Assembly: GCA_963695875.1 (NCBI GenBank)
Contig: CAVOID010000005.1
Coordinates: forward strand, 1 to 64,000
Direction: 5' to 3'
Source of the DNA: an uncultured delta proteobacterium
Lineage (GTDB): Bacteria > Desulfobacterota > Syntrophia > Syntrophales > UBA2185
DNA: 64,000 bases
The notes beneath the pieces are model-generated. The model ran no database searches. It was not told where the DNA came from and saw only the letters and a list, made by a program, of their open reading frames with translations. Below, in pieces: positions 17,412-46,264 of this stretch; within the stretch, counting starts at the first letter, position 1; each line of letters opens with the position of its first letter. The translations under genes and the position numbers were made by a program.

Positions 17412-17993
17412 TTATCCAGGGGGCACTGGCGGAGCGTGGATAAGCTCCGTTATATTTTGTTTGTGATTATAGAAGATGAAGAGGGCGGTTGCAACTGCTC
17501 CCGTCATCGCCGCCGCCTGGTATCCGCACGCAATAATCGTCCCGGCCATAAGAACGAAGGTCATGAAGAATGAGGCGATAAAGGGAATGCGGACGATCCC
17601 GTATACCCCCACCCAGACGAGGGCGGAAAAAGCCGCCGCAAGGGGTGAAATCAGGATGGTAAAGCCGAGATAGCCTGCCACCCCTTTCCCGCCGCGGAAC
17701 TGATGAAAGCAGGGGAAGCGATTGCCGAAAATTAGTGCCAGTCCCACCCAGGGGACGTTGTTCATCGAAATTAGATGCAGCGCTGCCCAGGAAACGGCAA
17801 CAGCCCTGGCTAAATCAAGAAGAAATACGACCCCGGCCCAAAGCATCCCGGCCTGCCGATAGACATTCGTAGTCCCGGCAGTCCCGCTGAAATAATATCT
17901 TGGATCATCTTTCCCTAACAGTCTGAAGAGCAGGATGGAGAAATTGACAGAGCCCGCTATGTAGGCTGCCACAAGCAGTATCGATAGCATCAT
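17412..17993 (-). CDS. plsY: Glycerol-3-phosphate acyltransferase, PlsY family
   Basis: YIAGSVNF, SGTAGTTNVYR, FRGGKGVA, HKQNI. Confidence 0.85.
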   Translation of the reverse strand: MMLSILLVAAYIAGSVNFSILLFRLLGKDDPRYYFSGTAGTTNVYRQAGMLWAGVVFLLDLARAVAVSWAALHLISMNNVPWVGLALIFGNRFPCFHQFRGGKGVAGYLGFTILISPLAAAFSALVWVGVYGIVRIPFIASFFMTFVLMAGTIIACGYQAAAMTGAVATALFIFYNHKQNITELIHAPPVPPG

Positions 17994-18064
17994 GACTCTG
18001 TGTTTCCCCTGTGCGTTAACATAAAATCCTCCCTACCCCCTTTGTTTAAGATGGGAACTGGAGG

Positions 18065-18919
18065 TTAATACAAGACCCAACCGGGAGGCTTGATACGGCC
18101 ACCGGAGACGTCCCTCATAATGACTCCTCTGATCTCCTCATGAAGATCACCAGTCAAATCACGAATCCATATATCGAAGAGAAGGTATTCTCCGGTCATT
18201 GACACGGGCGATATCCGGCAATGATAGGTGTCTCCGGGTATCGTTGGTTTGACGATGATGCGTTCCTCAAAACCGACGGGAAAGGCCACGATATGAGAAT
18301 ACCGCTGTCCCCAGGCGCAGGCGACATGAAGAGCTCCGTCGAAGGGAAAGGGAGAACCGAGGGGCTCTGATGGCGCCTGATTATCCTCAGCGTATACCTG
18401 GGCCACGGCACCGCTTTCAGAAAGAAGGACATCACCCCTGACATTCTGATAAGACGGCCCGAAGGGCACCAGGTCGCCGTATAATTTTTGCGCGGATATA
18501 TTATAGCAAATGTCCTCCGATAACGATATCGTATCCATAGGCACATCCGTGGCTCGATCCCCTGCAGACGTGAAACTGACAGCGGCATGGACTTTCGTCC
18601 TCGTCATGGTTCCTCTTATCCTGTCAATGGTGATCAATTTGGATAATATGCGGCCGCCTTCATAGACTTCTAGTTCGTTGCAGGCCTCGATGACCCGGGA
18701 TTTTTTTTCGATATACAGAAAACGGTCAAACGTGGCTGCATGCATGTGTTTGACATACGCAGTAGGCAGGTAAGCCTGAACCGATCCGGCCAGCCGCTGG
18801 AGGGCTTCAACGGCGGGCAGAATGATTTTACCATCAAAATGGTGGTCCTTGAGGTAGGGATGAACAGGGATCACAAGAGGTAGACGGATATGTTCCGCCA
18901 TCCGGGAAGGGTTCCCCAT
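18065..18919 (-). CDS. Stand-alone PKS-type double-hotdog dehydratase
   Basis: YLKDHHFDGKIILPA (HxxxGxxxxP), LY...VPFGPSYQ, PFPFDGALH (catalytic Asp region). Confidence 0.8.
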   Translation of the reverse strand: MGNPSRMAEHIRLPLVIPVHPYLKDHHFDGKIILPAVEALQRLAGSVQAYLPTAYVKHMHAATFDRFLYIEKKSRVIEACNELEVYEGGRILSKLITIDRIRGTMTRTKVHAAVSFTSAGDRATDVPMDTISLSEDICYNISAQKLYGDLVPFGPSYQNVRGDVLLSESGAVAQVYAEDNQAPSEPLGSPFPFDGALHVACAWGQRYSHIVAFPVGFEERIIVKPTIPGDTYHCRISPVSMTGEYLLFDIWIRDLTGDLHEEIRGVIMRDVSGGRIKPPGWVLY

Positions 18920-18922
18920 ATT

Positions 18923-20424
18923 TTAATATCCTCTGAATCTTTCCAGATCAGGAAATCGATTCATCATTTCCAATCGATGAATATATCTTTGATACCTTTT
19001 CTCCCAGCCTATTCTGCGGATCTGCCTGTCGATAAAGTATTTCATGACCGGCTTGACCACATGCGTCCAGAAGGACGTCCATATCCTGCCCTGCTTGTCC
19101 GCAAATGCCGATGGTTTCCACCAGCCCAGAGCAGTTTGCCTGTAATACCAGAAGGCATATTGCAGCTGATCGGATTCCAGATGCCTGGTTTTCACATTTG
19201 CCCAGAAGCCGTTGTAACGCTCATAGCGATCATGATTCGTGACCAATCCCTCATCGATCAGATATTCTCTGAGCTTGGTCTTGGGATAGGGTGTCAGTAT
19301 CTGACAGTAGGATGCGTCCGCCTCCAGATCAGTTGAGAAACTGATAGTTTTTCTTGATGGCCTCTTCATCATCATCGGGCAGTCCAAAGATCAGGCCGCC
19401 GATCACCATGATGCCGTACCGGTGACAATTCTCTACGGCCTGCTTCGCTTCTTTGACGATGTCGGCCTTCTCCATGGTCCTGAGATTATGACTCGATACA
19501 TTTTCAATCCCCAGGAAAACGATCCGGAATCCCGCCTCGGACATTTTTTTCACCATCGCTTCATTTCGGGCCACGGATATGCAGTCGGCCTGTACGACCA
19601 GTTTCAAATTTCGATATTGTTTTTGTATGATGGCATCACACAGGCTTATGACCCATTTCGGATTCAAAACCATATTGTCATCGGCGATAAAGATCAGCCT
19701 CGTTTTCTTGTTGAAGTAGATGTCGTCAAGATCGGCAAGGATGCGCTCAATGGGATATGTCCTGTAAGAGCGTCCGTACATATGACTGATGCTGCAGAAA
19801 TTACAGTTGCGGGTGCAGCCGCGGGAGGTTTCCATGACCTCGATTCTGGAATACATGAAATGGTATCCGCCCGTCAGGCGTCTATGATCCCGGATCGGCA
19901 GTTTCAGGCGGGACAGATCGCAGAGCGCTCCCCGTTCGTTGTGAACCCACTCACCGTCCTGTTTGTAGGAGAGGGATGGTATGGCTTCCAGTCTGTCTGT
20001 CCCTGCCAGGGCGTTCACCAGCCGGCGGAAGGTCTCTTCCCCTTCCCCCCTGATGATGAAATCGATCTCTTTCGATTCGGGGGATGCGGCCATTTCTCCG
20101 CTCATCAATGTGGCATGATAACCGCCGACGGCGATCTTCACATCGGGAAGGATACTTTTGATGAGCCCGATCACGGCCAGAGCAGGTCGGATACTGCCAT
20201 GTCATGGCAGACAGGCCGATCAGGTCGGGGTTGATTCTTTTTAAGGTTTTCGTCAGATAGGTCGAGATGCTGCTCCGTTTTCGCACCAGGTCAATGAGAT
20301 AGACTTCATGCCCCTCATCGATATTTCCGCCGATGCAGGCGATGCCGTGATTGGGCATATGGATCGCCATTTCATGGATAACGATGGGTATAACATCCGG
20401 CATGGAGATGAGGACAACTTTCAT
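18923..20424 (-). CDS. B12-binding radical SAM protein (2 frameshifts as assembled)
   Basis: Three ORF pieces; GLSAMTWQ/GGYHAT cobalamin domain; ETSRGCTRNCNFC; GLIFGLP. Confidence 0.88.
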
Positions 20425-21190
20425 AAATCCACTTTTCTTTCCATGAGGGAACGCGCCTCCGCCATGAGACCGGAGAGCGAAAAAGCATCGCTTTCATAAT
20501 CCGGTTCAAGGCTTCCGGCCAGTTCCACCTCAATGACATTTTCGTCACAGGTATTAAATAAAAACTTCCCCGGAGGAAAGAGTTTATGGGTATTCCGGAT
20601 CAATACCACCTTGATCGGCGCATTACAGAGCCTGGCAATTCTGAATGCGCCTTTGTCAAACGGACCTATCCGGCCGTTGCGGCTTCTTGTCCCTTCGGGA
20701 AATATAAAGAGATTCCCTCCTTCCGACAGATAATCCTTCATATTCTTTATCTGGTCAATCATGTCTTCCGTAAACAGACCTTCCGTCATGGAAGGGATAT
20801 AGCCGGATGTCTTCAAAATCCAGCCGAAAACGGGAAATCTGAAATAGTCACTTCTGACGATGGTCTTTTGTTTTTCAAACAGAGACACAAAAAGAATGGG
20901 ATCAAGGAAGGAGAGATGGTTGGCAATAATGATGGAAGAGCGAATGCGCGGACACCTCTTCCGATATATGCCATTTCACTCTGGGAACTATGGTTCGTAA
21001 AAGAGAGAAAAAAAGCCGGTGGAGCCGATGATTCAGTTTTTGAAAGGCCTCTTCACGCCTGGGATGAAAAGAAGAAGGCATACAGATAAAAGGGAGAAAA
21101 GAACACGAAGAATCCCATAATGTAGTATACCCAGAGGGTGACGGTGATGATGAAATCTTTCAGGGATTGTCAATACCGAGAACATGGGTC
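20421..21190 (-). CDS. 1-acyl-sn-glycerol-3-phosphate acyltransferase (PlsC-like), frameshifted; start approximate
   Basis: IIANHLSFLDP read manually at about 20930-20900; FPEGTRS; FDKGAF. Confidence 0.85.
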
Positions 21191-22442
21191 ATATCGTCAA
21201 TTGTCATGCACATCTTTTTTATGATGAGGCTGGTGTTCACGCCGCCGAAGGCAAAATTCTGGATGGTGGCAATCCGGATCGGATGTTCCCTGAGTGTGCG
21301 CGACGTGATTGATCATGGCGCACCGTTCGTCTACCTCGTCCAGGTTGAGGGTCGGCGCGATAAATCCTTCCTCCATCAGATACATCGCAATGATGGTCTC
21401 AATGGCGCCGCAGGAACCCATGGTGTGCCCCATATAGCTTTTCAACCCGACAACGGCAGGGCAGATTCCCATAGACATCATAAATAGCCTGTGCTTCGAT
21501 CACATCGCCCATCTTGGTTCCCGTCGCGTGGGCGCTGATGAAATCCACCTCATCCGCATTGATCTTTGCATCCTTCAGACCGATCCGGATGGTCTCTCTG
21601 ATGCCGTTCAGGTTCGGCAGGATCAGGTCGCCGCCGTTGTTGTTGCAGGCAAATCCTATTACCTCGGCGAGAATGGGGGCGCCTCTCTTCCGGGCAAATT
21701 CATACTCCTCCAGCATGACGGCTCCCGCCCCCTCTCCCACGACCAGTCCGTCCCTCTTCGCATCGAAGGGACGCGGGGTCAGATGGGGCGTATCATTAAA
21801 GGCCGTGGAACAGGCGAGCAGATTGTCGAAGACGGCGACGGTGGTCGTATCGTATTCGTCAGCCCCGCCGCAAAGCATGGCGTCCTGCATCCCGTATTTG
21901 ATCGCTTCATAGCCGTAGCCGATGGACTGGCTGCTCGTCGTGCATGCCGTGGATGATGAAATGACACGGCCCGTAATGCCGAACATCTTGGTGATATTGA
22001 CGGCTGTCGTGTGCACCATGGATTTCAGGTAATCGACGGCGCCGATGGCAGAAAATTCGCTTCGGGATGCGCCGAAAAAAGTTCTGTAGATATCCCGCTG
22101 AACGGTGGGACTCCCATGGGTCGAACCGAAGGCGACGCCCAAACGGCCGGAGGTGACAAAGGCCTGATCCAGACCGGCGCTCTCAATCACTTCCTTCGCC
22201 ACCTGGCACGCATAATAGGCGACGGGCCCCATGGTTTTCCGGTGTTGACGCTTGAAATCGTAGACAATTGGATAATCGACAGTCCCAAAAACCTTGGAGT
22301 GGATGTAGGGAGTCAACAGGCCGTCCTCCCGCAGAGGCTTGACTCCGGAAATCCCATGAACCAGATTGTGAAGAATCTCCTCTTTGGTGCGGCCAATGGG
22401 GGTGATGGCTGAACATGCTGTAATGACGACCCTTCTTTCCAT
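21160..22442 (-). CDS. Beta-ketoacyl-ACP synthase (FabB/F-like) KS-A, frameshifted
   Basis: TACTTS, HATGT, KSYMGHTMG, NFAFGG. Confidence 0.92.
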
Positions 22443-22453
22443 AAGGCTCCCGT

Positions 22454-22744
22454 TTATGTGAAGACTCGGACTTCACCGCTTCGACAGTGCCGGCTCTTGT
22501 CTCTGGCCAGCGACTCTATATAATCACAGATCTGATTGATTGTCCTGATGTCCATGGCCTGTTTCTTTTCCTCCTGGGTCAGTTCGGAACCGAGCATTTT
22601 TTCAATCTTAAGAAGCAGCTCAATGGCATCTATGCTGTCAAACCCGTGCTTTTCTCTCAGGTTATCATCCAGTCCCGGATTTTCAATCTCAAATTCCTTT
22701 CGGAAAAAGTGGAGTATTTGCGTTATGATTTCATCACGTGTCAT
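22454..22744 (-). CDS. Acyl carrier protein (ACP-4)
   Basis: GFDSIDAIELL phosphopantetheine motif; small acidic protein. Confidence 0.88.
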   Translation of the reverse strand: MTRDEIITQILHFFRKEFEIENPGLDDNLREKHGFDSIDAIELLLKIEKMLGSELTQEEKKQAMDIRTINQICDYIESLARDKSRHCRSGEVRVFT

Positions 22745-22794
22745 ATGTGTATTCCGAACACTCCTGAAAGTCATTTTCTGCCTTTCCTGACTGG

Positions 22795-23274
22795 TCACTG
22801 CGGGAAAGTTTTCCACAGATGAACCGTCTTCGGATCAACGGCCACAGGCTTTCCCGATGAATTAAGGGCGCAATGCCTCGTAAATCCTTTGCAGATGATC
22901 CCCCCGGTTTCAGGATGGGTGATCACATAATCAAAACGGAGCTTCACCCGTTCCAGCTCCGCCGGCCGTGTATAAACTAACATGGGATCGTCATAATAGA
23001 GGGGTTCATGGAAACATATGCCCAGTTCGATGATCGGATATACATAGCCGCTCTCTTCTATTTCCCGGTAGGGATATGCCGCATGCCGCATCAGCGAGGT
23101 GCGGCCGAATTCAAAGTAACGGAGATAATTTGCGTGATAGACCACCGAGGAACGGTCCGTATCGGCGTACAGCGTCCGCATCTCGCATCGGTGCCAGACA
23201 AGGCCGGTTTCCTGATCACGGACATAGCAGTCATCATGTCCCGATGCTTCCGGTCTGAATGGTTTCGGTTTCAT
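22795..23274 (-). CDS. YbgC/4HBT-family hotdog thioesterase
   Basis: YADTD...VVYHANYLRYFE.GR. Confidence 0.9.
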   Translation of the reverse strand: MKPKPFRPEASGHDDCYVRDQETGLVWHRCEMRTLYADTDRSSVVYHANYLRYFEFGRTSLMRHAAYPYREIEESGYVYPIIELGICFHEPLYYDDPMLVYTRPAELERVKLRFDYVITHPETGGIICKGFTRHCALNSSGKPVAVDPKTVHLWKTFPQ

Positions 23275-23275
23275 G

Positions 23276-24544
23276 CTATACTCCCCTGAATATAACGCAA
23301 CAGTTTGTGCCGCCGAAACCGAAGGCATTTGACAGGGCAATTTCATGCTGCTGCCTCCGTGCCTTATTGGGAACGAAATCCAAGCCGTCAAACTGCGGAT
23401 CGGGGATATAATTTATTGTAGGCAGGAGCACTCCTCTCTGCATTCCCTCGATGGTCAGTGCATTTTCAATGGCGGCAGTGGCGCCAAGGGAATGGCCGAT
23501 CTGGGATTTGTTCGATGATATGGGAATATGTTTCAATCTGTCTCCGAAAACGGCGCGCAGACATTCTACTTCCATGCTGTCTCCCGTGGTCGTGGATGTC
23601 CCGTGGGCATTTATATACTCCACATCATTCGGCTTTAAGTCCCGCATCGTCAATGGTTTCCAGGATCGCCCGGATGGCAGTAGACTTGTTCGGTCTCGTA
23701 AAATGATAGGCATCAGACGTCCAACCTATACCCATGACCTCAGCCTTTGCCTTGAGTCCATAAGCTCAAGAGGGTCTCATCTGCAGCCAGAACAATCACC
23801 CCTCCCCCTTCAGAAACGACAAAACCTTTCCGGTCGATGCTGAAAGGCCGGGACGCCTGGGAAGGATCATCATAGGCGCGATCATTGGGATGTATCTTTA
23901 TCGTGGCATTCATATTGGCAAAGCCATGGATAATCTCCGGTATAATAGGCATCTCCACACCGCCGGCGAGAACAAAGTCGCAGTCCCCGTCCCGTATCAT
24001 TCGTGAACCGATGGCAATGGCATGATTCCCCGAGGCGCATGCCCCCTGGGGAGAGAATATCGGACCGGTAAAGCCCAGAAGCATCCCGGCCTTGCCCGAC
24101 GGCAGGTTGGCGCAGAGATTGGGAAGCAGGTAGGGACTCACTTTCAACGGCCCTTTGTCCCTCAAATTTTCCATGGCGATGCGGAAGGAGTCGGTTCCGT
24201 TTATGGCAGAGCCGATCAGACAGGCTGTTCTCGGCCCCGTTTCTTTGTTCATTTGCAGCCCGGAATTTTCCAGGGCTTCTTTACAGACTGCCATGGTAAG
24301 AATGACAAAGGCCGCATTCCAGTTGTAAACTTCCTTTTCACTCGAAAAATCGTAAGTCCTGGGATCCCAGTCCGGTATCTCTCCCACAACATTGCTGAGG
24401 GATTTCACGTGGCATCGGGTCACTCTTGCGGAAACCGGCCTCGCCCTTAACCGCCCGTTCCCAGGTCTTCTTAAAGGTCTTTCCCAGCGGCGTCGCCGCG
24501 CCATATCCGATGACAAAAACCCGTCTGTTCTTTGGTGCCTTCAT
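23276..24544 (-). CDS. Beta-ketoacyl-ACP synthase (FabF-like) KS-B, frameshifted
   Basis: RVFVIGYGAATPLG, GACASG, NAHGTST, KSQIGHSLGA, NAFGFGG. Confidence 0.92.
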
Positions 24545-24571
24545 ATGTTTACATTCTGATGTTCACAGTGT

Positions 24572-25825
24572 TCATCCGATCCTGCGAAGGACAATGCAGG
24601 AATTACAGCCGCCGAATCCAAATGCATTTTTTAACACATGCTCCTGAGCAACCCTTCTCGCTCCTTCCGGTACGCAATCGATAGCAATATCCGGATCAGG
24701 CATATAATTAATCGTGGGAAGGACCGTATCATGAATCATCCCTTCCATGGCAAGGATTATCTCAATGGCGGAGGACGCCCCCATGGCATGGCCTGTCTGG
24801 GACTTGTTGGCCGATACCGGCGGTATGTCGTTGCCGAAAATGTCCTTCAAGGCATCCCCTTCAACCTTGTCACCGATCTTCGTCGATGTCCCATGGGCAT
24901 TGACGGCATCAATATCTCCCGGCTTCAAGCCGGAATGAGCGATGCTCTCCGCGATGCACCTTCTCACCGTTTCCAGGTTCGGGGCAACAAAATGATGGGC
25001 ATCTGATGTCATGGCCCATCCCGCCATTTCAATTTTGGGGGTAAGCCCATGGGCCTTCGCGAAATCCTGACTCGCCAGTGATAATACAGCCGGCGCCTTC
25101 CGATACGACGAAGCCCCGTCTGTTGATGGAGAAGGGACGGCTTGCCTTTTCCGGAGGTTCTTCCGGTTGCCCCTCCTTCGGCCTGTACGCGCCGTTCATC
25201 GTGAAAAAACCGCCCAGAATGGTTTCAACAAGAGGGAAATCCACAGCGCCGCAGATGACCACATCCGCCATACCCTGTTCTATGAACATGGCCCCGATGA
25301 TCATGGAGGTAGAACCCGTGGCACAGGCGGTAATGGTCGAGGTTATGGGACCTGTCGCCCCGGTCATGATGGATATCTTTCCTCCGACCATATTGATGCA
25401 GGAGTTCGCATTGGTAAACGGATGGGGAAGTTTCCCTCCTGAAACCCACATCCTGTCGGCACGGATCACGGCATCGAGACCGCCGATGGCGGAACTGAAG
25501 GTAATGGCCACTCTGGGCGCGATGTCATCCGTTATTTCGATCCCGCTTTTTTTCAGCGCCCGGTGGACAACGAGCATGGCATGTCTGAAAACCGGCGATG
25601 TCCACAGCGCCATGTCGCGGGATTTCAGAAAAGGATAGGCGTTCGGTGTCGATATCCTCAACCTGACCGGCTATTCTTACGGGAAACCCTTCGCGAAGGG
25701 GAAAGCGGGTCAGGACACCAATGCCGCTTGCGCCGCGTGACTGCACGATCCCACTGGGTTTCCATATCGATACCCAGGGGTGATACCGCATCATAACCCA
25801 ATATTACCGGTCGATTTCTTTCCAT
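24572..25825 (-). CDS. Beta-ketoacyl-ACP synthase (FabF-like) KS-C, frameshifted
   Basis: PVILGYDAVSPLG, TACATG, NAHGTST, KSQTGHAMGA, NAFGFGG. Confidence 0.92.
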
Positions 25826-25869
25826 CCTGGTCTGTCTTGGTTTCGGGCGCAAGGGGATGTCCAGTGACG

Positions 25870-26871
25870 CTACCATGGTATGAACCGGTAGAGTTTGGCG
25901 AACATTTCATACACTTCAATCCAGTTCTGGAGATCCTTCGTTGAATTGCAGATGTTCTCTCTTGTTGACCATGACCCAGCTCATATGCGCAGCGCCGTCC
26001 TTGCAGGTCGAACAATCCCTTGTTGCAGAGGTGCAGCATCGGTGCATGGTTTGAAGATCCGAAGCCCATCGGATAAACCGGATGAGCCTTTTCGGCTGAG
26101 GATTCCTGTTATCCAGCGGTTCCGTAACGGACGGGCATTCTGCCCATCCGAATGTACGATTCATCATCTTCCCCGTGGTGATGATCTCATGATAATACTT
26201 GCAGGAAATAACGGTCTTCGGGTATCTGTCAAGCATATCGTCCATTTCGGCCCGAACGTCTTTCAGCTTTCTCTTCCGTCCAGAAAAAGCCATCCACATT
26301 TTCATCATTCGTCAGCAACTGCAAATGAACCTTCAGTCCGACATCGGCGATCTTTCTGATTACGTGTTCTATCCGTCCGACCTGTTTCGGCGTAATCGTA
26401 TAGAGATAATAGGTATACGGATCCCCTTCATAATTTTTGCTGGATACGGCGAACGTATCTTTCCCCCTGAGTATTTTTTCGTCTTCCTCATCACCCCATA
26501 GCGAGATGCCCACCATCATATCGGGAAAACGGTCTCTGGGAATCTTGATCAGTCCGTTGGTTGCGCAATACGTCGGCAGTTGTGTATAAAAGGCCTCGAC
26601 CCGGTCAAGGTACAGCGTCGGTTCCCCGCCGATCAATATGGCGAGATTGACGCCCCGTTCCTTTTCCTTTTGAACAAACCGGTACCATTTTCCAACATCC
26701 ATTTCCTCGGCGGCAGCCTGATGTTCGTTGGAAGAAAAGAAAAAACAGCCCTTGCAGCGCAAATTGCATTGATTGGTTACATCATAGATGGAACTGCGGA
26801 TATTCAGAGCTGGATATCTTTTTGTAACGCTCATGCCATGCTTTATCCAGTAAGGAACTGACGGTTTTCAT
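25870..26871 (-). CDS. Radical SAM protein with Cys-rich C-terminus (rSAM-2), frameshifted
   Basis: YDVTNQCNLRCKGCFF, GGEP, ATNG; C-terminal ECPS...RCCTSATRDCSTC. Confidence 0.85.
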
Positions 26872-26942
26872 AGATACCTATTTCATCGTATCATGTCAAT
26901 CAGACTGATGAAAATCGGAATAGGTGATCATCCACTTTCTGA

Positions 26943-28034
26943 TCATCTACCTCTTTCAGGTGGCGCAATCATCCCGCGGCAGAGGTTATCACCTTTTTCA
27001 TAACCCATAACCCAGACGGCAAGGTATGTATCCACATAGTCAAGCCATGATTTGAACGTATCCGGGTCAGTCACATGACGGTACAGGCGTGCCGTAACAA
27101 CGGCGCTGCCGGCGGCATAATGCCTGCATTCTTCACAATCCGTGTCGGGAACACAGCAGGCCACATCCCGGTCCCAGGACAGATCCGCCCGATATTGCCT
27201 GAAAGACCGTCCTAGACCGATGTCTGTCGAAGGATTCCTTCTCGGATAGGAACATCCATAAAGCGCATGCAGGCCGTATTGATGGGTATGTGCAACGACA
27301 TTGTAGGGGGAAAAAAGTACATGTTCCGGGATATCGGGACAGAAGATCCAGCATGACTTCCGTGTCCGATCAAGGGAATCCTTGTTATGCCGGAGCGAAC
27401 CGGCATAGCCGACGGGAGATGAAAAAACATTGAAGGTGATCTTGCAATCATGTGCGGCAATGGTGTCCATCACTTCATAGACTTCATCTATATTGTCCCG
27501 CGTAAAGGTATAGACGAACACGGCCCTGGGGTCACCCCGGTAATTGTCGATCTGTTTCGACAGCAGATTTTTTGCCCTTCTCACGCGCAGGCTCGTTTCA
27601 TCATTTCCCCAGACGGAGATATGAATCTTGTAGCCGACCGATTCGGGAATGCGTTTAAAGCCATTCGTGGCAATACACCCCAGGGGCATTTCCTCGTAGC
27701 AGACCTCAAGAAGCTGCGGAACCATGGACGGCTCGGCACCGGCCAGAACGACATAGGTGATGCCCCTTGCCTTTTCCTCTTTCATCAGCTTCCGCCATGC
27801 CTCCGGATCCTCGTTTCCCTGTGCAAACTGTTTTTCCCCTTCATAATAATAGCAACCGTCGCATCGGATGTTGCAGCGGTTTGTCATATCATAGGTCGAT
27901 TCCCGAAGGAAAAAAAACTTTCTCACCTTTTCCCAGCGCTGGCGAACCTCAGGCTCGGCCAGCAGCTCGGAAAATTTCCATTTTTTTGTCCCTTTATCGC
28001 ATTGAGGAATTGTTATGATGTCCGTGGTATTCAT
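26943..28034 (-). CDS. Radical SAM protein with Cys-rich C-terminus (rSAM-1), paralog of its neighbour
   Basis: YDMTNRCNIRCDGCYY, GAEP, ATNG; C-terminal GCSY...ACCVPDTDCEEC. Confidence 0.88.
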   Translation of the reverse strand: MNTTDIITIPQCDKGTKKWKFSELLAEPEVRQRWEKVRKFFFLRESTYDMTNRCNIRCDGCYYYEGEKQFAQGNEDPEAWRKLMKEEKARGITYVVLAGAEPSMVPQLLEVCYEEMPLGCIATNGFKRIPESVGYKIHISVWGNDETSLRVRRAKNLLSKQIDNYRGDPRAVFVYTFTRDNIDEVYEVMDTIAAHDCKITFNVFSSPVGYAGSLRHNKDSLDRTRKSCWIFCPDIPEHVLFSPYNVVAHTHQYGLHALYGCSYPRRNPSTDIGLGRSFRQYRADLSWDRDVACCVPDTDCEECRHYAAGSAVVTARLYRHVTDPDTFKSWLDYVDTYLAVWVMGYEKGDNLCRGMIAPPERGR

Positions 28035-28063
28035 GAATCTTTCAAGAAGGGTTCTCATTTGGT

Positions 28064-28325
28064 TCATGCTGCCTGTTTCTGCTCTATATATTCGGCAATC
28101 ATGCGAATGTTTCTGAGTTTGGGATAATCATCCTCATCGATGGTGATACCATATTCGTCCTGAAGCACAAGAACAACCGTGGCCAGATCCATACTGTCAA
28201 CGCCAAGTTCATCCACCAGATCAAGATCGGGATCGAATGTTTCCGGCGTAATATCTTCCAGTTTCAGTTCGAAGATGATAATTTCGGCAATGCGAAGTAT
28301 CAGTGCCTTGTTTATTCGTACTCAT
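28064..28325 (-). CDS. Acyl carrier protein (ACP-3), absent from the ORF track because of a 5' frameshift
   Basis: Manual translation LILRIAEIIIFELKLEDITPETFDPDLDLVDELGVDSMDLATVVLVLQDEYGITID. Confidence 0.88.
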
Positions 28326-28365
28326 GAGCATTCACAATCCTCCCCGCGTAAATAAATCGTCAAAG

Positions 28366-28810
28366 TCATACTTTTTCTTGAACATTATTTTTACAGAAAA
28401 CTGCGGTGATCGTCAATTCAACCATGCTTTCACTTTCCTTCGGCAGCAACTCAGCCACAATTATACCCGTGCATGCCGTTTTTCCTTTCACCGCAACATC
28501 AAAATGATAGGAAAGTCCACCATCCTGATGTGAGGAAGACAGGGATATTTTCAACAACTCGTCCGGTCTGACCGGTAGCCTGAATCTGACCCTCCTGATC
28601 CCCGCTATCCTTATCTTTTTCCCCTTTTCGGATTCATGATGCCTGATGGCATCCGTCACCATGGACAGGATGGCAATGCCGGGCAGAATCGGGTCATCGG
28701 GAAAATGACCGGAAAACCAGGGTGATCCGCATCTCTGCGCGAGCTTCTGCAAGAATCTCACTGCCTGACGGCTCCTCCTTATACGATATGCTGTGCCATG
28801 TCTCATCCAT
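28366..28810 (-). CDS. FabA/FabZ-like single-hotdog dehydratase, frameshifted
   Basis: SPWFSGHFPDDPILPGIA, VRFRLPVRP. Confidence 0.85.
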
Positions 28811-28995
28811 GATTATTAGCCGTATATTTAAGCTTTTTTATCTATCATTGATCTATCAGCATGTCAAAAATATTTTTAATGTCTCGTAGGATTATAAACA
28901 TAGTATATTGTTAAATAATATTACAACTTTCTACAAAAATACCCTCTTCCCCATGTCTCTCAGCCTCGATTGGGGCGGGATGGGTAGGAGTGATT

Positions 28996-29864
28996 TTAAT
29001 GCTTTGAAGCGTCTCTTGGTACATGAATGTTATTCACAAAATCAACACCATTGATCCGGACCATAATCGGTCTTCCCAAAAGTTCGGCAAGAGGAACTAT
29101 CTGCAATCCTTTGTTTTTCAAACCGGACAGTATCAGATCAATCTCTCGCAAAAAGCATTCCGTGTCATCGCCACTTTCGGTTGGATATCGTGAAGAAGAA
29201 TGATATCATCCGGTTTTACCTTGTTCAGTATTTTTCCGGACAATCCTTGAATATACCTGTTTCCGAAGTCAATGGCCCGACAGGTAAAAGTCACGCAGTA
29301 GAGCCCCTGTTGAAGCAGAACATTGGCCAGTCTCGGGTTGGTGATACCGACAGGCGGCCGGAAAGCGCCAGGGGAAATGCCGAAGCGTCTCAACAAGTCT
29401 GTGCGTTGATTCAATTTCCCGATACAGCGTTTCCGGACAGCGCAGCATTAAAAAGGGATCATGGCTGGTATGAATGATTGCCGATGTCATGACCATGCGC
29501 AAGTATCTCCGAAATGAGGTCGCCGTATTTGGCAGCCTTTTCCCCGGTGACGAAGAAAGCGGCCTTTGCGGCGTGCCGGTCCAGCAATTGCAAAAGCGGC
29601 CGGGTCGTTTCGGGATCGGGTCCGTCATCAAATGTCAGGGACACGCAGGTTTTGCCCGTATGCCCTCGGCTGATGACAGGCAAAAAGAAACCCCTGGAAG
29701 GGAAAAACGGGGCCGCCACACAGAGAATAATAAAAACAGCAAGGGGAATAGACGACCAGAGCGAACAGAAAGAGAAGGATAGCATTACCGCAAGGCAATG
29801 AGCGACAGAAGCCGGTTATCACCGCCGGAGATACATATCCCGCCCTTTCCACGTCATGCTTCAT
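28996..29864 (-). CDS. Membrane-anchored polysaccharide deacetylase family protein, frameshifted
   Basis: LTFDDGP, GNHS, FRPPVG, ILLHD spread over several ORF pieces. Confidence 0.88.
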
Positions 29865-31211
29865 TGGATCAATCGCTCCCACAGGGGACCACATGAGCCC
29901 CGTGCATGCAGCCTTGCAATTGTTTTGAACATCTGCTGAGATCCGGAACCGAAAACCCAGTTGGTCCGGCTGCCGGCATGATTTTTCACAAGTTCCATAA
30001 CTGTCTCCCGGTGCAAGGCCGGCGACCAGTAAAACCTCGGTTCCAGTGAGATTCCAGTTCGGTTCGATCTGTCCTTCCTCAAGGGCCAGATCATACAGGG
30101 CAGTGTGAGGATAAATTCTGATTCCGTTGAAAACGAAGAAAACGGCTTTTCCCAGCCTGTCGGCATTGGCCAGGGTCTCCTTCAGCGTATCTTCATTTTC
30201 TCCCGGCCCGCCCAGCATGAGATAATGAGCGACATGCAGACCGGCAGCGAGAGCTTCCCTGTGTGAGGAAAAGACATCATCAATGTGAAAAGGTTTTCCG
30301 TATGAGTCAAGGACCGATTTGAGAGAGATTCCGTGCCGAATTCCACATGCATCAATCCCGCGTCGGCAAGAATGCTGATAATAGTCCGGCGGGGGAGCCG
30401 TAGGGGTGAAAAAGCCGCCCCAGGGAATGGAAATGCCCGCTTTTTTAAACGCCGCCGCAACTTCCAGGCTGTGTTCATAGCTGCCGTTGAATGTCGAATC
30501 CGTCATATAGAGGTACCTGGCGCCGGCATCCTGAAGCATTCTGGCCGTGTCGGCGACTTCCTCCGGCTCTGTAAAGCGGAACCGCCTTCCCTCTATATGG
30601 GGATAGGTACAATAGATACACTTGAAAGGACAGCCCCTTTTCGTCTGCATATTGAGCATGCCGCCTCTTTTCAGGTAAAAAGAGGTATAGGAATGATCCG
30701 GGAAAGGCCGCGCTGGAATGACTGTGACCAGGGCTCCGGAAACCAATAGGACTGTTTTTTGTTACAATGCCGGGAATGACCGGAAACGCTTTCATTCCGT
30801 TCCAGTGCCTCCAGAAGGAGCTGGAGCCGTTCTCCCTCGCCGATGATGCCAAAATCGGCATCAAGCAGGGTCATCAATTCACCGGGCAGGATGGTAAACC
30901 CGCTGCCTCCCAGGACGATCAGTCCCTTCGAATGCTGCCGGATAATACCGATTAATTCCCGAATTTCGCCTATAAAGGTCTTCACATTGGCATCATCGAC
31001 ATTATCGATGTTTCTGATGGATAACCCGATGATATCAGGGACAAATTGAGAAAGAACGCCGGCCAGGACACTACCGTCTCTTAGTTCATTCATGTCGACC
31101 GTTTTCACCTGATGCGGCGGTGATATGGCATTGCATCACATAATCAAGGCCGATCGGGTACGACGGATAAGGTTCGGTAACGGTGTTTGTCGATACGAGC
31201 AATACCTTCAC
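29861..31211 (-). CDS. B12-binding radical SAM protein, lipid-biosynthesis type, frameshifted
   Basis: VLLVSTN..EPYP, GLSIRNIDN, GGSGF, QTKRGCPFKCIYCTYP, GGPGE. Confidence 0.87.
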
Positions 31212-32692
31212 AGAAAATCCCCCATCACTTCCCGGGTGAATCTTTCATGACCGATGATGTGTCTGACCGTCTGGAAAGATCCCAGCATTGTCCCCATAAT
31301 CCCCGGCGCCAGGCTGTTCTGACCGGCAAGAAACAAGCCCTCGATGGACGTGCGTTTCAAAGATGCCGTCTTCATCAATTGTCTTGTCGACCGAAGAATC
31401 CCATAGGCTGAACCGTCCGGAGAGTTCACCCGGTCTCTGATGGTCAACGGGGTATAGATATCAAGTATCTTCATCTCCCCTGAGATGTCCGAATAACTTT
31501 GATGCCTCATCGATGAACTGACGGGCTTTATCTTCCTTTGCCTCCACATAATCCCTGCCGCGCCGCCCTGACGTTGTTCCTTCCCATTTCCGCCATTCCT
31601 CAATGCTGCTCGTCGTCATCATGGATAGGATGTTTATTCCCGGCTGCCCGCTGCTTCGCAATTGATGGAATATTCCGCGGGACAGGGTTACGTCTTCTTC
31701 CGGGTAGAGCCGGTAGATGTTGTAGGATAGCGACTCATGCGCATCAGCATCGACGGCAAGGTTGACGCAAAAGAGTCCTTTCGTATTTTCGAGTTGTGTG
31801 ACTCTCTCTGCATAGGCGGGCCGGAGAGCATCACCGGGCAGCATGGCAACGAGAGTCCCGGGATGAACGGCGGCGATGACAGCTGCCGCCTCAAGGATGC
31901 GGCCGGATTGCAAAACGACGCCTTTCACCTTTCCCGATTCGACCAGGATTCTTTCGACACCGTCACCGGTAACGACATCACCGCCCAGTGATTTAAGACG
32001 GGATACAAACGCATCCGCCATCTGTGAGCTGCTGCAGGCCAGTCGCCAGGAGGACAGAAGATAGGAGGCAAGGGTCATATGATAATAAAAAGCGGGACAT
32101 TCCCGTAAAGGAACTCCGATCAGGGTGGAAGGAACACCCAGGACAGAGAACAAACGGGTGGAACAACCCATGCGCAGGAGGAGTTCCCCCATGGATTCAA
32201 AGTTCTCCGGCGAAAGAAAAGTCATCTCCGGGGACATCAGCATGTCGAGCGAAAACAGGGAGCGGGATATTTGCCTCAGATCGCCCATGATCGTTGTAAT
32301 CTGGCTGTGCTCCTGGGGAAAGGCCCATCTCAAGTTGTCTTCGAAGGCATCGATGCCTTCAGGAAGGTCGAAGGTAAAATCATCAAAAATATAGCGGTCT
32401 ATGACACCATCTAACGCCCATGCGCTCGACAGGGATCAACGGGGTGACGCCGAGATAATCCCACAATCTGCGGAGAGGCTGCCCCTTGTCGAGGGAGCCC
32501 ATGTAATGCACGCCCACAGGACATTCAATGCCGGACCGGATATAGCTCCGCATCAATCCCCCCGGCAGCGGATTTTTTTCCACGACCGTGACCCGGTGGT
32601 TAAGTTTCGACAGAATTATACCGGCCGTCAGACCACCGACACCGGAACCGATGATCAGGACTTTTCCATGTACGCGTCTTTCCCTGCATCAT
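31208..32692 (-). CDS. Phytoene desaturase-like FAD oxidoreductase, frameshifted; start approximate
   Basis: LIIGSGVGGL, GVHYMG, TPLT..D....PDGSAYG, LFLAGQN...PGIMG. Confidence 0.85.
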
Positions 32693-34870
32693 GGCCTTAT
32701 CTCCACCGCCGTTATGTAATTACCGAATCCCATGACAAGAACACCCCTCCCCCGCAATGGCACCGGGCCTTGATGGCAGACGTTTTCTGGTATTTCACCG
32801 GCTTTCACAAACGAGACCGCCAGAACCGCCGCGACGGCCGACGCCGATGCAAATTCACCGACGAACCTCCGATAATCGATAACGGGATGAGGGTATCCCG
32901 TGAGAGACAGGAAGTCATTTAGTTGCCCCTCTCCCTTTTCTCTTTGTGCGGCGGGAATTCCCGCCAGGATGGCCCCGAATTCGTCTTTGATTCTTTCCCT
33001 TCCACCGAGCGCATTGATGAGTTCCGCGATACATTTCCTGTTGGTTCCGGCGTAAGAGAAAAACGAAGGATATATCTGCAATGAGCGATGTCGACGTCGC
33101 CGGCATGAGGTAGAGAGCGCCGCCTCCGTCTGCCGGGACTCCCGCCTGCGCCACGGAGGCATCAAACAGAGGAGATAATTTTTCGTGATATTCGTCCGCG
33201 CCGATTACGAGAAGAGGATCATCGCTGTTCCGGGTGAGAAGGCTCGCGCTCAGCAGTGCCTGCTCGAAGGAACAATCGCCGCCTGTCATGGTCACGTTCG
33301 GACCGGTTGCCTTGAAGTGGATCGCGACATGACCTGCGGCCGCGTTGTGCACGGAGCCGACAAAATCCGTCGGGCTGGTAAATCTCTCATTCGATGCAAA
33401 GAGTTTTGTCAGGAAATCATGGGTCTCAGAAAGCCCGCCCCAACCGGTTCCGAAAAAAACCGAGGCCGGTGGTTTCGTCATCGTCGTATCTGCACAGGCA
33501 GAAACCGCGAGCGACAGGCCCATGCGGCAAAGACGCTTCATACGTCGGACGTATTTCTCGGAGAGAAACCTCAGTATTTCGGCAGATGGAACGATTCCGC
33601 CGGCTCCTTCACCACGACTGATATGTTCCATTGTTCGTACGGCATCCCCGGCCCCTGTAAAGCAGGAGCTTCCCAATATGGCAAATGCTCTGGGTTTTAC
33701 CTCGGAAACCGGAGCCTTGAAATCTTCTTGACCCCCCGGACGGCCGATAACGAGGACAGCGTTATTTCCGCCGAAACCGAAGGCATTTACAAGAACCGTG
33801 TTTATCTTCGCCTCCAAAGGCTCTCTCACCGGCATCAAACTCAAGCCGGGATCGGGATCATGAAAGCCCGTATTCGCAGGTATGATGCCATGGGTAATGC
33901 TTAATGTGGAAACAACAGCGCCAATCGCCCCTGCTGCCGCCAGAGAATGACCGACAGACCCTTTGATGGAAGAGAGCGGCGGCAAAGGATGATCTCCGAA
34001 AAGGGCGTGTACCGCCCTTGCCTCAGCAAGATCGTTATCTACGGTGCCCGTTCCGTGGAGATGGATATAATCGATATCCGCAGGTGAAATGCAGGCATCG
34101 GAAAGAGCTTCTTTCATGGCATGCAGCGCTCCAACGCCTTCCGGATGAGGCGAAGCGGGATGATAGGCGTCGCAGGATAAGCCGGCCCCGACCAATTCTG
34201 CAAGGATATCGTCCGGTGGGATTTCCGCAGCGGTCAGAAGCAGCATGGCAGCACCCTCACCGACGGACATACCGCGTCTCCCTTTGTCGAAAGGATGAGC
34301 GCCTGTAACATCTACAAGCTGAAGAGAATGAAAACCATAGTAGGTCAACCGGCAGAGCGCATCAACGCCTCCTGCAAGGACCCTTTTCACCCTGCCTGAC
34401 CGCAGCATTTCAAGAGCGATTTTCAGGGCAACAGATCCTGATGAGCACGCTGTCGAAACAGTGAGGACGGGACCTTCACATCCCACGCGGCGGGCTATAT
34501 TCTCGGCAATGGAACCGGTGGAGTGATTTCTGTATCTTTCAGGATCAACGACGCCTTGTTTTAAAAGTTCCTCTGTAACAGGCATTCCTCCCGTGGTGAC
34601 GCCGATGACAATTGCATCCGGCGGGCCGCCCCCATTTTCCATAGCCTCTTCGGCAGCAGCAAGCGCCAGCGCATGGGTCCGGGGCAGATCCTCCGTGGAA
34701 GAAAACGAGATGATTTCACCGACGGGTAGCGGTGTTTCGGAAGTTGGGAAAAGATGAAGAGGTTTAATTTCTCGTGCAGCTGTTTTGATGGAGTCTATTG
34801 TATCGAATATGCCTTGTCCGAAAGGGCTTATGATTCCCATTGATGAAATAAAAACACGTGTGCCATTCAA
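32689..34870 (-). CDS. Ketosynthase fused to a chain-length-factor-like domain (KS-D), frameshift near 33090
   Basis: STACSSG, HGTGT, GHSL, FGFGGNN followed in the same ORF by RRMKR..RMG, GTGWG, SPTDFVGSVHN. Confidence 0.88.
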
Positions 34871-38073: not shown

Positions 38074-39222
38074 TCATGCAAGCAACGCTGCCATCTCTTC
38101 TTTTCGGGCGTTCGCATCCGCTGCACCGATTTCCATAAGATTTTTTATATAGCTTGGAACAAACATGACCATGCTGAGCCAATCAAAACTTCCCATTTCA
38201 TGAGTGCCGAGTCCGCGCATAAGAAAACGAAACAGACGGGGCAAATCGGATTCAAATTCGCCGGCTATTTTTCCCAGGTGTACGGAAGGACGCAAAACAA
38301 ATTCCCGAACTAATCGGAGCTTATTATATTCATTTAATGTGTTACTATCAAGAACACGGTTGACTCGCTCAAGCTCAAGTGCATCCTGATCCAGGAAATC
38401 AAGAAAAATAGCATTCATCAATATACCCATTATATGAGCAACGGAGGGATAGCCGCGATGGGTCTCATAACTTGCCTCTTGCATGGAGGGCTTGCAGCGA
38501 GTCGAAATTGCCAGGATACGTCCTGCGCCAAGATGCAGAGAGGGTGAAAGCGGTGCGGATTGACGAATAACGCCATCACCATACCAAGAATTTTCAACTT
38601 TAACGGCTGGAAAGAAAATAGGCAGCGCCGTGGAAGCCATGATTTGGTCAACCGTAATTTCTGTCATAACACTGTGTCTATCGGGCCTTTCCCACATTTC
38701 GATATTCTTTCCCTGAACCCATGTAACAGTTTGGCCCGTTGTATAGTTTGTGGCTGTGATGGCAAGGGCTTTTAGTTTTTGCCTTCTTATATTCTCGCGG
38801 ATTCCTATTATTCCGCCGCCCGATGATTTAAAGCCATTTTCCAACATTTTTCTGAGCGGCGTAGTATCCACCAATCCTTTCGGGGATATTGTCGTAGCAA
38901 CACCTCCCGAAAGAAGGGAGAACCCCCAATGCAAAACATTTTTTAATAGGCTCCCGGCATCTACTTTAAAAACATTATCGATTTTAAGTTTAAGCCAGAA
39001 TTCGCTTAGTGCATTAACAGCTTCTGCAAAGGTACCTTGATGATTGGCAATAAACGTTGCGTTGATGGCACCGGCGGAAACGCCTGTTAATATCGGGATG
39101 TTGAGGTGAGGGAAATGATCTGCAAGGGAACGCAGAAAGCCTACTTGATAAGCGGCATGCGCCCCTCCTCCACTTAGTACGAGAGCTAAATCATTATTGT
39201 CGCTACTCAATGACCACACCAA
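38074..39222 (-). CDS. Patatin-like phospholipase
   Basis: LSGGGAHA, GVSAG, DGV (variant of DGG). Confidence 0.9.
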   Translation of the reverse strand: MVWSLSSDNNDLALVLSGGGAHAAYQVGFLRSLADHFPHLNIPILTGVSAGAINATFIANHQGTFAEAVNALSEFWLKLKIDNVFKVDAGSLLKNVLHWGFSLLSGGVATTISPKGLVDTTPLRKMLENGFKSSGGGIIGIRENIRRQKLKALAITATNYTTGQTVTWVQGKNIEMWERPDRHSVMTEITVDQIMASTALPIFFPAVKVENSWYGDGVIRQSAPLSPSLHLGAGRILAISTRCKPSMQEASYETHRGYPSVAHIMGILMNAIFLDFLDQDALELERVNRVLDSNTLNEYNKLRLVREFVLRPSVHLGKIAGEFESDLPRLFRFLMRGLGTHEMGSFDWLSMVMFVPSYIKNLMEIGAADANARKEEMAALLA

Positions 39223-39303
39223 TCTTGAGGTTTAATATGTACTAATTTCCTCTTTAACCCTTATAATTTTGCAAATTTATCAAAAAGCGTCAACAGCGGA
39301 AAA

Positions 39304-39411
39304 AATGGGGATGGATTTATTTTATTACTGTATCATGATATTTATGGCTTATTTGCGTCTTCAACAACAGAAAGGTTAGTGCTCGACATTTTAAAAAAAT
39401 CCATCCCCATT
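39304..39411. repeat. 108-bp MITE/REP-like element with perfect 15-bp inverted ends
   Basis: AATGGGGATGGATTT (39304-39318) and AAATCCATCCCCATT (39397-39411). Confidence 0.7.
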
Positions 39412-41061: not shown

Positions 41062-41147
41062 CAGTCTCCTCCTTTCTCTTGAATCCGCGTCCGTTACATC
41101 TCTTCGCAAAAAGCATCCTATCGAACATATAGAAATTCCGTAATTTT

Positions 41148-42062: not shown

Positions 42063-42083
42063 TCCATCCTCATTTCCTCATGC

Positions 42084-45000: not shown

Positions 45001-45181
45001 TCGGATGATGCATGATAACATAGCGAGCATCGGCTAAAACGGGATCGCTCTGGGGAAGAGAGGCCAAGATATCGGTATCAAATTGGAGACGGTATATCCC
45101 TGCTGTGAATAGCCCTACGACAGCTAAGATCACGACGATCACAAGGGACCATCTCAAAAGGTATCTGTGCGCATTCATCAT
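42084..45181 (-). CDS. MMPL/RND-family exporter fused to a C-terminal class I methyltransferase, frameshifted near 44830-44920
   Basis: Two TM bundles (TVDYG, GMGTDY); C-terminal IIDVGTGYG, LLDMIH. Confidence 0.85.
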
Positions 45182-45198
45182 GAAAGGTTATCAAAAGG

Positions 45199-45916: not shown

Positions 45917-45988
45917 CAGTCCGCTTTCTCACTCCAAATGATTATCCCTGATCGAATCCACAGGGAACTAGGTATGTCGTCTCAAATC

Positions 45989-46264
45989 TTAATTCCTCTC
46001 CCTGAACTTCTTCATCGCTGCGGGGATCTTGTCCGGCTGTTCCATAAGCATGACCAGATCATTAAATATTGTATCTTCATGCAGAAGTTCCAGCGGGAGA
46101 TCCACATGGAAGGTATCGTGTAAAAGGATCTGTAAATTCACAGCCACCATTGAATCCCAGTCGGGGATTTCACCCAGTTTAGTCTCCGGGGTGATAGATC
46201 CGTCGCCGATTTCAAAAAAATTATCCAAGAGAACTTGTTTCATCGTTTGCCAAATATCATTCAT
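45989..46264 (-). CDS. Acyl carrier protein (ACP-1)
   Basis: PDWDSMVAV motif; small acidic protein. Confidence 0.8.
   Translation of the reverse strand: MNDIWQTMKQVLLDNFFEIGDGSITPETKLGEIPDWDSMVAVNLQILLHDTFHVDLPLELLHEDTIFNDLVMLMEQPDKIPAAMKKFRERN

Follow-up and report, generated by a model that had tools for sequence, protein, structure and literature searches.

A PlsY-family acyltransferase that accompanies a ladderane-type radical SAM gene cluster in Syntrophales suggests a route for the cluster product into membrane phospholipid

Extended type II fatty-acid synthesis (FASII) gene clusters were described in 2009 in Kuenenia; Desulfotalea psychrophila, Geobacter and Pelobacter have strikingly syntenic ones (Rattray 2009, PMC2649909). 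The 'ladderane-candidate' clusters of Kuenenia are reported as kuste3335-3352 and, for Cluster I, kuste3603-3608 (PMC2649909; bioRxiv 10.64898/2026.05.19.726425), and Cluster I from bacteria that carry out anaerobic ammonium oxidation (anammox) is described as encoding an acyl carrier protein (ACP), FabZ, a FabF pair that resembles a ketosynthase (KS) and a chain-length factor (CLF), a phytoene-dehydrogenase homologue and a B12-binding radical S-adenosylmethionine enzyme (B12-rSAM) (bioRxiv 10.64898/2026.05.19.726425). According to the available text of the 2009 study, no ladderanes were found in D. psychrophila (PMC2649909), and a 2026 review states that the best-known proposed route to ladderanes is without experimental support and that the others are only hypotheses (PMC13459092). 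'Ladderane' clusters have been flagged in many genomes and metagenomes, among them clusters of unknown function in Desulfobacterota and other phyla (PMC9902471), and the product of the non-anammox clusters has been a puzzle since 2009. The subject of this analysis is one such cluster, located on the minus strand of a 64,000-nucleotide stretch (the window: positions 1 to 64,000 of contig CAVOID010000005.1, assembly GCA_963695875.1) from an uncultured delta proteobacterium of the order Syntrophales, and in particular the PlsY-family glycerol-3-phosphate acyltransferase encoded by its last gene. The assembly comprises 2.86 Mb in 16 contigs and is 82.6% complete.

The cluster is a variant of this known but uncharacterized 'ladderane-type' kind, as it combines in one locus a KS with an inactive KS-like partner, a CrtI-like flavoprotein, a dedicated ACP and a hotdog dehydratase (Table 1). 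Like the anammox clusters in their published form, it encodes several divergent FabF-type KSs that include a KS/CLF-like pair, dedicated ACPs, a FabZ-like dehydratase, a phytoene-desaturase-like flavoprotein, a B12-rSAM, two more radical SAM (rSAM) enzymes and a polysaccharide-deacetylase-like protein; the likeness to the Kuenenia and Desulfotalea clusters, twin rSAMs included, is one of published descriptions (PMC2649909) and not of sequence. It differs from the two anammox clusters in that the parts of both are united in one locus, in that the KS and CLF-like halves are fused (best Protein Data Bank (PDB) match of the fusion, 9s5h_B at 210 bits), and in that the locus ends in PlsY; the term 'plsY' does not occur in the text of Rattray 2009 (PMC2649909). 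The literature searched contained no paper linking PlsY to ladderane-type clusters, nothing on the TIGR04072 family, no ladderane paper for Syntrophus, Smithella, Syntrophales or Desulfobacterota, and work on fatty acid kinase, PlsY and PlsX only for Firmicutes, apart from a paper on A. aeolicus PlsY (PMC5700162). One of the two B12-rSAMs of the locus is assigned to TIGR04072 through its intact ortholog (382.2 bits against a cut-off of 360) in the closest relative, a Syntrophales metagenome-assembled genome (MAG; L009) in which the first rSAM of the cluster (rSAM1) is 91% identical; the frameshifted window copy is 76.6% identical to this ortholog over residues 166-387.

Aryl polyene (APE) gene sets contain an ApeI-like dehydratase, a KS pair, two ACPs, a thioesterase and an LPLAT-family acyltransferase, and each of these has a counterpart in the window locus: an ApeI-like dehydratase (DH1; best PDB match 6qsr_A, which is ApeI, at 36.7 bits, with FabZ-type dehydratases as the next entries), a KS with a KS-like partner, two ACPs of the PRK05350 and PRK09184 kinds, a 4HBT thioesterase (TE) and an LPLAT. 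Judged by its family matches, the locus is a mixture of ladderane-type and APE-type parts, because DH1 is ApeI-like, the third stand-alone ketosynthase (KS3) is PRK09116-like and the second carrier protein (ACP2) is PRK05350-like. In contrast to APE clusters, no adenylating starter enzyme, ketoreductase or LolA-/MMPL-type exporter domain was found in the scanned genes of the 17.4-34.9 kb region. In addition, the window locus encodes four rSAM enzymes and PlsY, neither of which APE clusters are known to contain.

A third point of comparison is the fatty acid kinase route of Firmicutes, in which FakA and FakB make acyl-phosphate from free fatty acid and PlsY acylates glycerol-3-phosphate. The genes considered here resemble this route in the combination of a YbgC/FadM-type thioesterase, Dak2 and DegV domains and PlsY, with acyl-phosphate that would be made without PlsX. 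They differ from it in that the kinase is one polypeptide with DegV, the fatty-acid-binding partner, in place of the FakA C-terminal domain, in that PlsX was not found in the whole order and PlsY has Asn at position 92, and in that the system, which is linked to a biosynthetic cluster, supplements a main enzyme of PlsB-like type.

The Pfam domains encoded on the minus strand from 28,810 to 17,412 are a dehydratase (DH), ACP, rSAM, rSAM, KS, KS, TE, ACP, KS, LPLAT, B12-rSAM, a polyketide synthase-type dehydratase (PKS-DH) and PlsY, which is the 13-gene order and strand given in an initial annotation of this DNA. Among species-representative genomes, 432 relatives of rSAM1 were found, mostly in Syntrophales (Smithella, Syntrophus), with others in Desulfobacterales, Spirochaetota, Leptospirales and single Planctomycetota and Bacteroidales bins, and 80 of these loci (~70-91% identity) were kept for comparison. 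The core order across the related loci is DH1-ACP1-rSAM1-rSAM2-KS1-KS2-TE-PKS-DH-PlsY, in most of which PKS-DH is located between TE and PlsY; four loci, three from spirochaetes and one from Syntrophus, have a different layout after KS1. Loci were treated as informative if the thioesterase is followed by 2.5 kb or more of sequence; in 37 of these 43, PlsY is found downstream of TE on the same strand, at a median of 979 bp from the end of TE, and this set includes MAGs of Smithella, Syntrophus, Leptospirales and Desulfosarcinaceae. The gene order far exceeds what chance would produce; two of the six loci in which PlsY was not found end for lack of sequence. The presence of a terminal PlsY of its own suggests that the product of the cluster is built into membrane phospholipid.

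The distribution of PlsY was analyzed in a sample of 121 genomes of the order, this genome among them; 112 of the 121 are of high quality (completeness of 90% or more, contamination of 5% or less). PlsX (PF02504) was found in none of the 121 genomes, this one included, and hence in none of the 112 (the control was positive in 9 of 14), and a PlsB-like protein of ~880 aa was found in 107 genomes (101 of high quality), with scores of 380-486 bits that are under the 618-bit equivalog cut-off but cover most of the model. The PlsB-like gene of this genome is at C3:405,705-407,626. PlsY (PF02660) was detected in 50 genomes (43 of high quality, leaving 69 of the 112 without it), the rSAM1 homologue in 51 (43 of high quality) and DegV (PF02645) also in 51 (43 of high quality). 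Both PlsY and rSAM1 are present in 48 genomes, three have rSAM1 without PlsY (in one of which, G096, the match is cut off at a contig end), two have PlsY without rSAM1 and 68 have neither; DegV and PlsY likewise share 48 genomes, and 46 genomes have all three features and 68 have none. The three features are jointly present or absent within genera g13, g17 and g23, such that genomes with all three and genomes with none provide natural controls, and in genus g2 PlsY was missed in one of two carriers. PlsY is at most 12 kb from rSAM1 in 29 of the 31 genomes that have both on one contig, the exceptions being 19 kb and 594 kb. Outside the order, three cluster-bearing genomes (Leptospirales, Desulfosarcinaceae, Spirochaetota) have one PlsY, no PlsX and the fused kinase described below, and two bins have PlsX in addition to a PlsY (172 and 182 bits to PF02660), with cluster contigs of just 3-6 kb that are too short to judge.

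These distributions show that PlsY has an accessory status and goes along with both cluster and kinase, within a PlsX-free lineage whose bulk lipid is made with a PlsB-like enzyme. The initial annotation had proposed that PlsY is a dedicated transferase, and this part of its interpretation is upheld: the presence of PlsY tracks that of the cluster, the majority of high-quality genomes do without it and the PlsB-like protein is widespread. The same annotation had held that a plsY that was the sole, housekeeping copy and was unlinked in relatives would count against a dedicated role; the cluster PlsY is indeed the single PF02660 match in this genome, but it is not a housekeeping enzyme, and its linkage to the cluster recurs in relatives. 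As to separate housekeeping genes elsewhere in the genome, no plsX and no second plsY were found, and the genome does contain, besides the PlsB-like gene, a paralog that passes the PlsC cut-off (G000:C7:152700-153422, 123 bits against 102.95).

The window PlsY aligns to A. aeolicus PlsY (5xj5, E 9.8e-22) and scores 89.4 bits with the TIGR00023 equivalog model, under its cut-off of 137.2 (90.7 for the L009 ortholog). The residues that form the glycerol-3-phosphate pocket of the A. aeolicus enzyme, Ser35, Arg45, Lys104, His177 and Asn180 (PMC5700162), are kept in the window PlsY and in 37 of 37 cluster-linked PlsYs, and because of this the acceptor of the cluster enzyme is very probably glycerol-3-phosphate. 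The window PlsY also keeps Thr41 and the Gly-Gly-Lys-Gly-Val-Ala phosphate-hole loop. His92, whose side chain is described as binding acyl-phosphate together with that of Thr41 (with Asn37 as an oxyanion helper; PMC5700162), is replaced by Asn in the window PlsY and in all 37 cluster-linked PlsYs; Asn37 is replaced by Thr in the window PlsY, a change limited to 3 of the 37 (the window and two close relatives). In a published survey of 7,288 PlsY homologues, position 92 is His in 97.8% and Asn in 0.5% (Table 2, PMC5700162). By comparison, Asn occupies this site in 115 of the 120 closest database homologues of the cluster enzyme and His in none of the 120, and in a set of 120 full-length representatives at 50% identity those above ~98 bits have almost exclusively Asn, Thr or Val, with His below that score. 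Judged by these alignments, the cluster PlsY is shown to belong to a separate subfamily with Asn at the acyl-phosphate-binding His92 position, and the donor specificity of this subfamily is a clean biochemical question.

The DegV protein that co-occurs with PlsY is a single chain of ~570 aa with Dak2, FakA_M and DegV domains and no FakA_C domain (as examined in the G072 ortholog). In this genome the fused kinase is encoded at G000:C5:80,554-82,279, with one frameshift, outside the window and 63 kb from PlsY; it is 1.6 kb from PlsY in G072, which is of the same family, and at most 30 kb from PlsY in 15 of the 20 genomes that have both on one contig. An aromatic amino-acid ammonia-lyase (PF00221) is encoded directly upstream of the fused kinase in this genome and in G072 (G000:C5:82340-83888; L095:6785-8329), and a GDSL lipase is also found near the kinase.

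PlsY enzymes use acyl-phosphate as donor (PMC5700162). The chain had been proposed in the initial annotation to be installed directly into glycerophospholipids, which is unlikely for an enzyme that takes acyl-phosphate and not acyl-ACP; such a donor implies prior steps by a thioesterase and by a kinase. In the pathway proposed here, type II fatty-acid and polyketide parts (the KS-CLF fusion, three more KSs, two ACPs, the ApeI/FabZ-like dehydratase and the PKS-type dehydratase) would build an acyl chain on dedicated carrier proteins, and two sister SPASM/twitch-type rSAMs, two B12-type rSAMs and the CrtI-like oxidoreductase would tailor it. The YbgC/FadM-type thioesterase would then release the finished chain as a free acid, the fused Dak2-FakA_M-DegV kinase would convert this acid to acyl-phosphate, and the cluster PlsY would transfer the chain to sn-1 of glycerol-3-phosphate. 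We infer both the relay from thioesterase to kinase to PlsY and the identity of the transferred acyl group with the cluster product. This relay is the preferred model because TE passes the YbgC/FadM cut-off and because there is a precedent in S. aureus without plsX, for which FadM-dependent fatty acid release is reported to rescue growth (PMC13245860). Overall, a ladderane-type cluster with this sn-1 route into lipid is the best explanation of the locus and is held with moderate confidence. A more specific proposal, that the Asn92 PlsY and the single-chain kinase constitute a PlsX-independent, product-dedicated sn-1 acylation line that couples the radical SAM cluster to membrane phospholipid, is put forward tentatively, as something that could well turn out otherwise.

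The cluster thus described brings its own glycerol-3-phosphate acyltransferase and an acyl-phosphate-capable kinase to lineages whose bulk lipid synthesis uses neither. From the pattern of cluster-linked PlsY and kinase, an unusual chain is therefore predicted at sn-1 of glycerophospholipids. If this is correct, the product of non-anammox 'ladderane-type' clusters would be an acyl chain of membrane phospholipid, and such a chain at sn-1 could occur in Smithella- and Syntrophus-type anaerobes, spirochaetes and others. The part of this system worth following is the accessory Asn92 PlsY and fused kinase in PlsX-free lineages.

Several observations weigh against this route into phospholipid. In four of the 43 informative loci, a further 2.6 kb or more of sequence contains no PlsY, and one complete genome accounts for the PlsY that lies 594 kb from the rSAM. 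The kinase is outside the cluster, at the distance given above in this genome, and was found in none of the 80 loci (~10 kb on each side of the rSAM). The sampled genomes are related, so their counts overstate independence. The H92N variant of A. aeolicus PlsY has 6.9% activity (PMC5700162), and the Asn92 subfamily may be slow or depend on a different donor. Within the order, seven genomes that are at least 92% complete (G009, G028, G036, G068, G090, G102 and G117) have no PlsB-like, PlsY or PlsX match, which means that the order has an acyltransferase that has so far escaped detection. Finally, G055 and G075 have PlsY and the kinase without the rSAM, so these two proteins can be a general module for free fatty acids. 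In that case PlsY and the kinase would serve the salvage of free (for example, exogenous) fatty acids, and the cluster product would be placed elsewhere, such as in an outer-membrane lipid via LPLAT in an aryl-polyene-like manner. The usual distance of 5-30 kb or more between kinase and PlsY, the ApeI-like DH1 and genes at 39-47 kb of the window that form an APE-like set for export and anchoring agree with such a function. On the other hand, the operon ends in PlsY, immediately behind TE and PKS-DH, in 37 of 43 loci from several phyla, presence and absence of PlsY match those of the rSAM in the three genera named above, and 33 of the 43 loci have no LPLAT, so salvage is considered unlikely, if still a serious alternative to the sn-1 route.

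A different donor for the Asn92 PlsY, for instance acyl-ACP, acyl-CoA or acyl-adenylate, would make the kinase unrelated to this enzyme. Such a donor is favoured by the replacement of an acyl-phosphate-binding His that is otherwise almost invariant and whose change to Asn leaves little activity (PMC5700162), by the prevalence of Asn92 among the cluster PlsYs and their closest homologues, and by an order in which no PlsX was found; it is judged quite unlikely given that Thr41 and the backbone phosphate-hole loop are kept, that the kinase co-occurs in 48 of 50 PlsY-bearing genomes and that a canonical fakA-plsY-fakB operon exists within the same order. That PlsY could be the housekeeping glycerol-3-phosphate acyltransferase and merely adjoin the cluster, as the single PlsY match in an 82.6%-complete genome might indicate, is highly improbable and was rejected, with PlsY absent from 69 of 112 high-quality genomes, PlsX from all 121, a PlsB-like gene present in 107 of 121 (this genome included) and the cluster PlsY under the equivalog cut-off. 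The least credible alternative is that the cluster is decaying, with genuine frameshifts and pseudogenes. About 20 frame changes were found across 17.5 kb, and 10 of the 13 genes between 17,412 and 28,810 are broken into two to four frames. Yet rpoB is divided into three pieces and rpoC into four or more within this assembly (e.g. C7:169299-173366, C16:58223-60865), the PlsB-like gene, the fused kinase and the neighbouring lyase (HAL) are likewise split, and the gene pieces of the cluster retain 75-95% amino-acid identity to intact orthologs. A base-by-base alignment of six genes to L009, in which all genes are intact and in the order of the window, revealed that the internal gaps are, with few exceptions, insertions of one base in the window, located outside homopolymers. 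The pseudogene reading was rejected on account of these insertions and the equally split rpoB and rpoC, and because rpoB and rpoC are split too, the cluster frameshifts are assembly error and not gene decay. A one-base insertion is also the reason why ACP1 is absent from the list of open reading frames (ORFs). The assembly seems unpolished, and its gene calls and its 82.6% completeness are probably underestimates.

In the order of the three-gene operon just mentioned, which is PlsX-free, the operon itself (L096, G055:C100:572-3845) has the classical fakA-plsY-fakB arrangement and is found without an rSAM cluster; a second cluster-free genome has PlsY and the fused kinase 8 kb apart.

The unit to which PlsY belongs is larger than the 13 genes. 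Four minus-strand genes upstream of an AT-rich gap of ~250 bp, which encode the deacetylase-like protein, the TIGR04072 B12-rSAM, the CrtI-like flavoprotein and the KS-CLF fusion (to about 34,870), adjoin the core in most related loci. These conserved genes belong to the cluster, which is a unit of 17,412-34,870 in the form of two adjacent units. The description of the 13 genes as a self-contained operon in the initial annotation is therefore not sustained, both for this reason and because the genes scanned from 17.4 to 34.9 kb contain no ketoreductase (KR), enoylreductase (ER), malonyl transferase or phosphopantetheinyl transferase (PPTase) domain, with the likely supplier of acyl-phosphate 63 kb away. 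The gap upstream of DH1, which had been taken as an AT-rich promoter, is indeed AT-rich (GC 0.42-0.44 compared with about 0.52); its role as a promoter is not supported by a promoter scan, which lists no site within 28,811-29,058, and inspection by eye finds TTGACA-17-TAGATA in the gap.

Table 1. Features of the cluster at 17,412-34,870 of the window, listed from the last gene upstream
Feature	Position	Strand	State	Basis
PlsY-family glycerol-3-phosphate acyltransferase, Asn92 subfamily; last operon gene	17412..17993	-	intact	PF02660 116.8 bits (cut-off 24.1)
PKS-type double-hotdog dehydratase-like protein (PKS-DH)	18065..18919	-	intact	PS-DH 23.4 bits, just under 23.7 cut-off; PKS_DH_N weak
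B12-binding radical SAM enzyme (BchE/HpnR-like)	18923..20424	-	2 frameshifts	PF02310 and PF04055
LPLAT-family (PlsC-like) acyltransferase; N-terminal boundary approximate	20424..~21200	-	frameshifted	PF01553 77.9 bits
Ketosynthase KS3 (PRK09116-like)	21197..22442	-	2 frameshifts	PF00109 and PF02801; L009 ortholog NF006587 395 bits
Acyl carrier protein ACP2	22454..22816	-		PP-binding 35 bits; PRK05350-like
YbgC/FadM-family hotdog thioesterase (TE)	22795..23391	-	intact	4HBT_2 and 4HBT; TIGR00051 78.5 bits (cut-off 68.7)
Ketosynthase KS2	23276..24559	-	3 frameshifts	Pfam; L009 ortholog FabF-like 379.6 bits
Ketosynthase KS1	24572..25876	-	at least 3 frameshifts	Pfam and mapped pieces
Radical SAM enzyme rSAM2, sister of rSAM1	25862..26834	-	frameshifted	PF04055; 26% identity with rSAM1 when aligned
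Radical SAM enzyme rSAM1 (SPASM/twitch-like fold)	26943..28067	-	intact	PF04055
Acyl carrier protein ACP1	28067..28331	-	1 frameshift	95% identical to L009 ACP1, residues 7-88
ApeI/FabZ-like single-hotdog dehydratase DH1	28366..28810	-	1 frameshift	PF22818 36.8 bits (cut-off 28.5)
AT-rich intergenic gap, possible internal promoter	28811..29058	.		GC 0.42-0.44
Polysaccharide-deacetylase-like protein	29059..29960	-	frameshifted	tblastn with L009 ortholog, which matches PdaB/NodB-type families
B12-binding radical SAM enzyme, 'lipid biosynthesis' TIGR04072 type	29867..31211	-	~3 frameshifts	PF04055; L009 ortholog TIGR04072
CrtI/phytoene-desaturase-like flavin oxidoreductase	31220..32779	-	3 frameshifts	PF01593; ortholog matches CrtD/CrtI families
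Ketosynthase fused to KS-like (chain-length-factor-like) domain	32692..34870	-	1 frameshift	PF00109, PF02801, PF13723

The acyltransferase of the LPLAT family had been designated PlsC-like, with the role of a dedicated PlsC. The LPLAT domain is present and an H-x4-D motif is readable in the translation, but membership of the PlsC family is not supported (TIGR00530 66.1 bits, under the cut-off of 102.95), and as a dedicated enzyme of the cluster it is not conserved, since the ACP2-KS3-LPLAT-B12-rSAM block is found in only 10 of the 43 loci. This module is a clade-specific addition which may load a second chain onto the lyso-lipid. Its B12-rSAM (18923..20424) is represented in L009 by an ortholog that scores 156.9 bits with BchE, under the cut-off of that family.

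A structure model of rSAM1 (pLDDT 74.7) has SuiB, SkfB, BlsE and anSME as its nearest folds, at TM scores of 0.4-0.5; the fold search returned generic SPASM/twitch radical SAM neighbours alone, and these indicate no specific reaction. Homologues of PKS-DH reach 39.7 bits to PS-DH. A fusion of PKS-DH to PlsY was considered for the long homologues, some of which are ~500 aa, and was rejected, as six of the eight scanned are fusions of the dehydratase to an Sfp-type PPTase; because these are PPTase fusions and not PlsY fusions, a role of the dehydratase as a substitute for PlsX is unsupported. The fusions of PKS-DH to an Sfp-type 4'-phosphopantetheinyl transferase are ~505-515 aa long and occur in L015, L017, L018, L049, L075 and L087, and the window PKS-DH is without this domain. 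In L009, a 105-aa ORF that is absent from the window lies between KS1 and KS2 (L009:13535-13852); similar ORFs occur at other positions in L036, L041 and L071, and the element may be a small mobile insert.

Upstream of the cluster, the minus strand of the window encodes a second lipid-type gene set at 38077-47260, which includes a patatin-like phospholipase, an acyl-CoA dehydrogenase, an LpxL-like lipid-A-type acyltransferase, a GT2 glycosyltransferase, a FabH-type KSIII and an MMPL-like protein of 920 aa whose C-terminal domain is a methyltransferase domain. This set resembles an APE-like anchoring and export set, and it could have a functional tie to the cluster.

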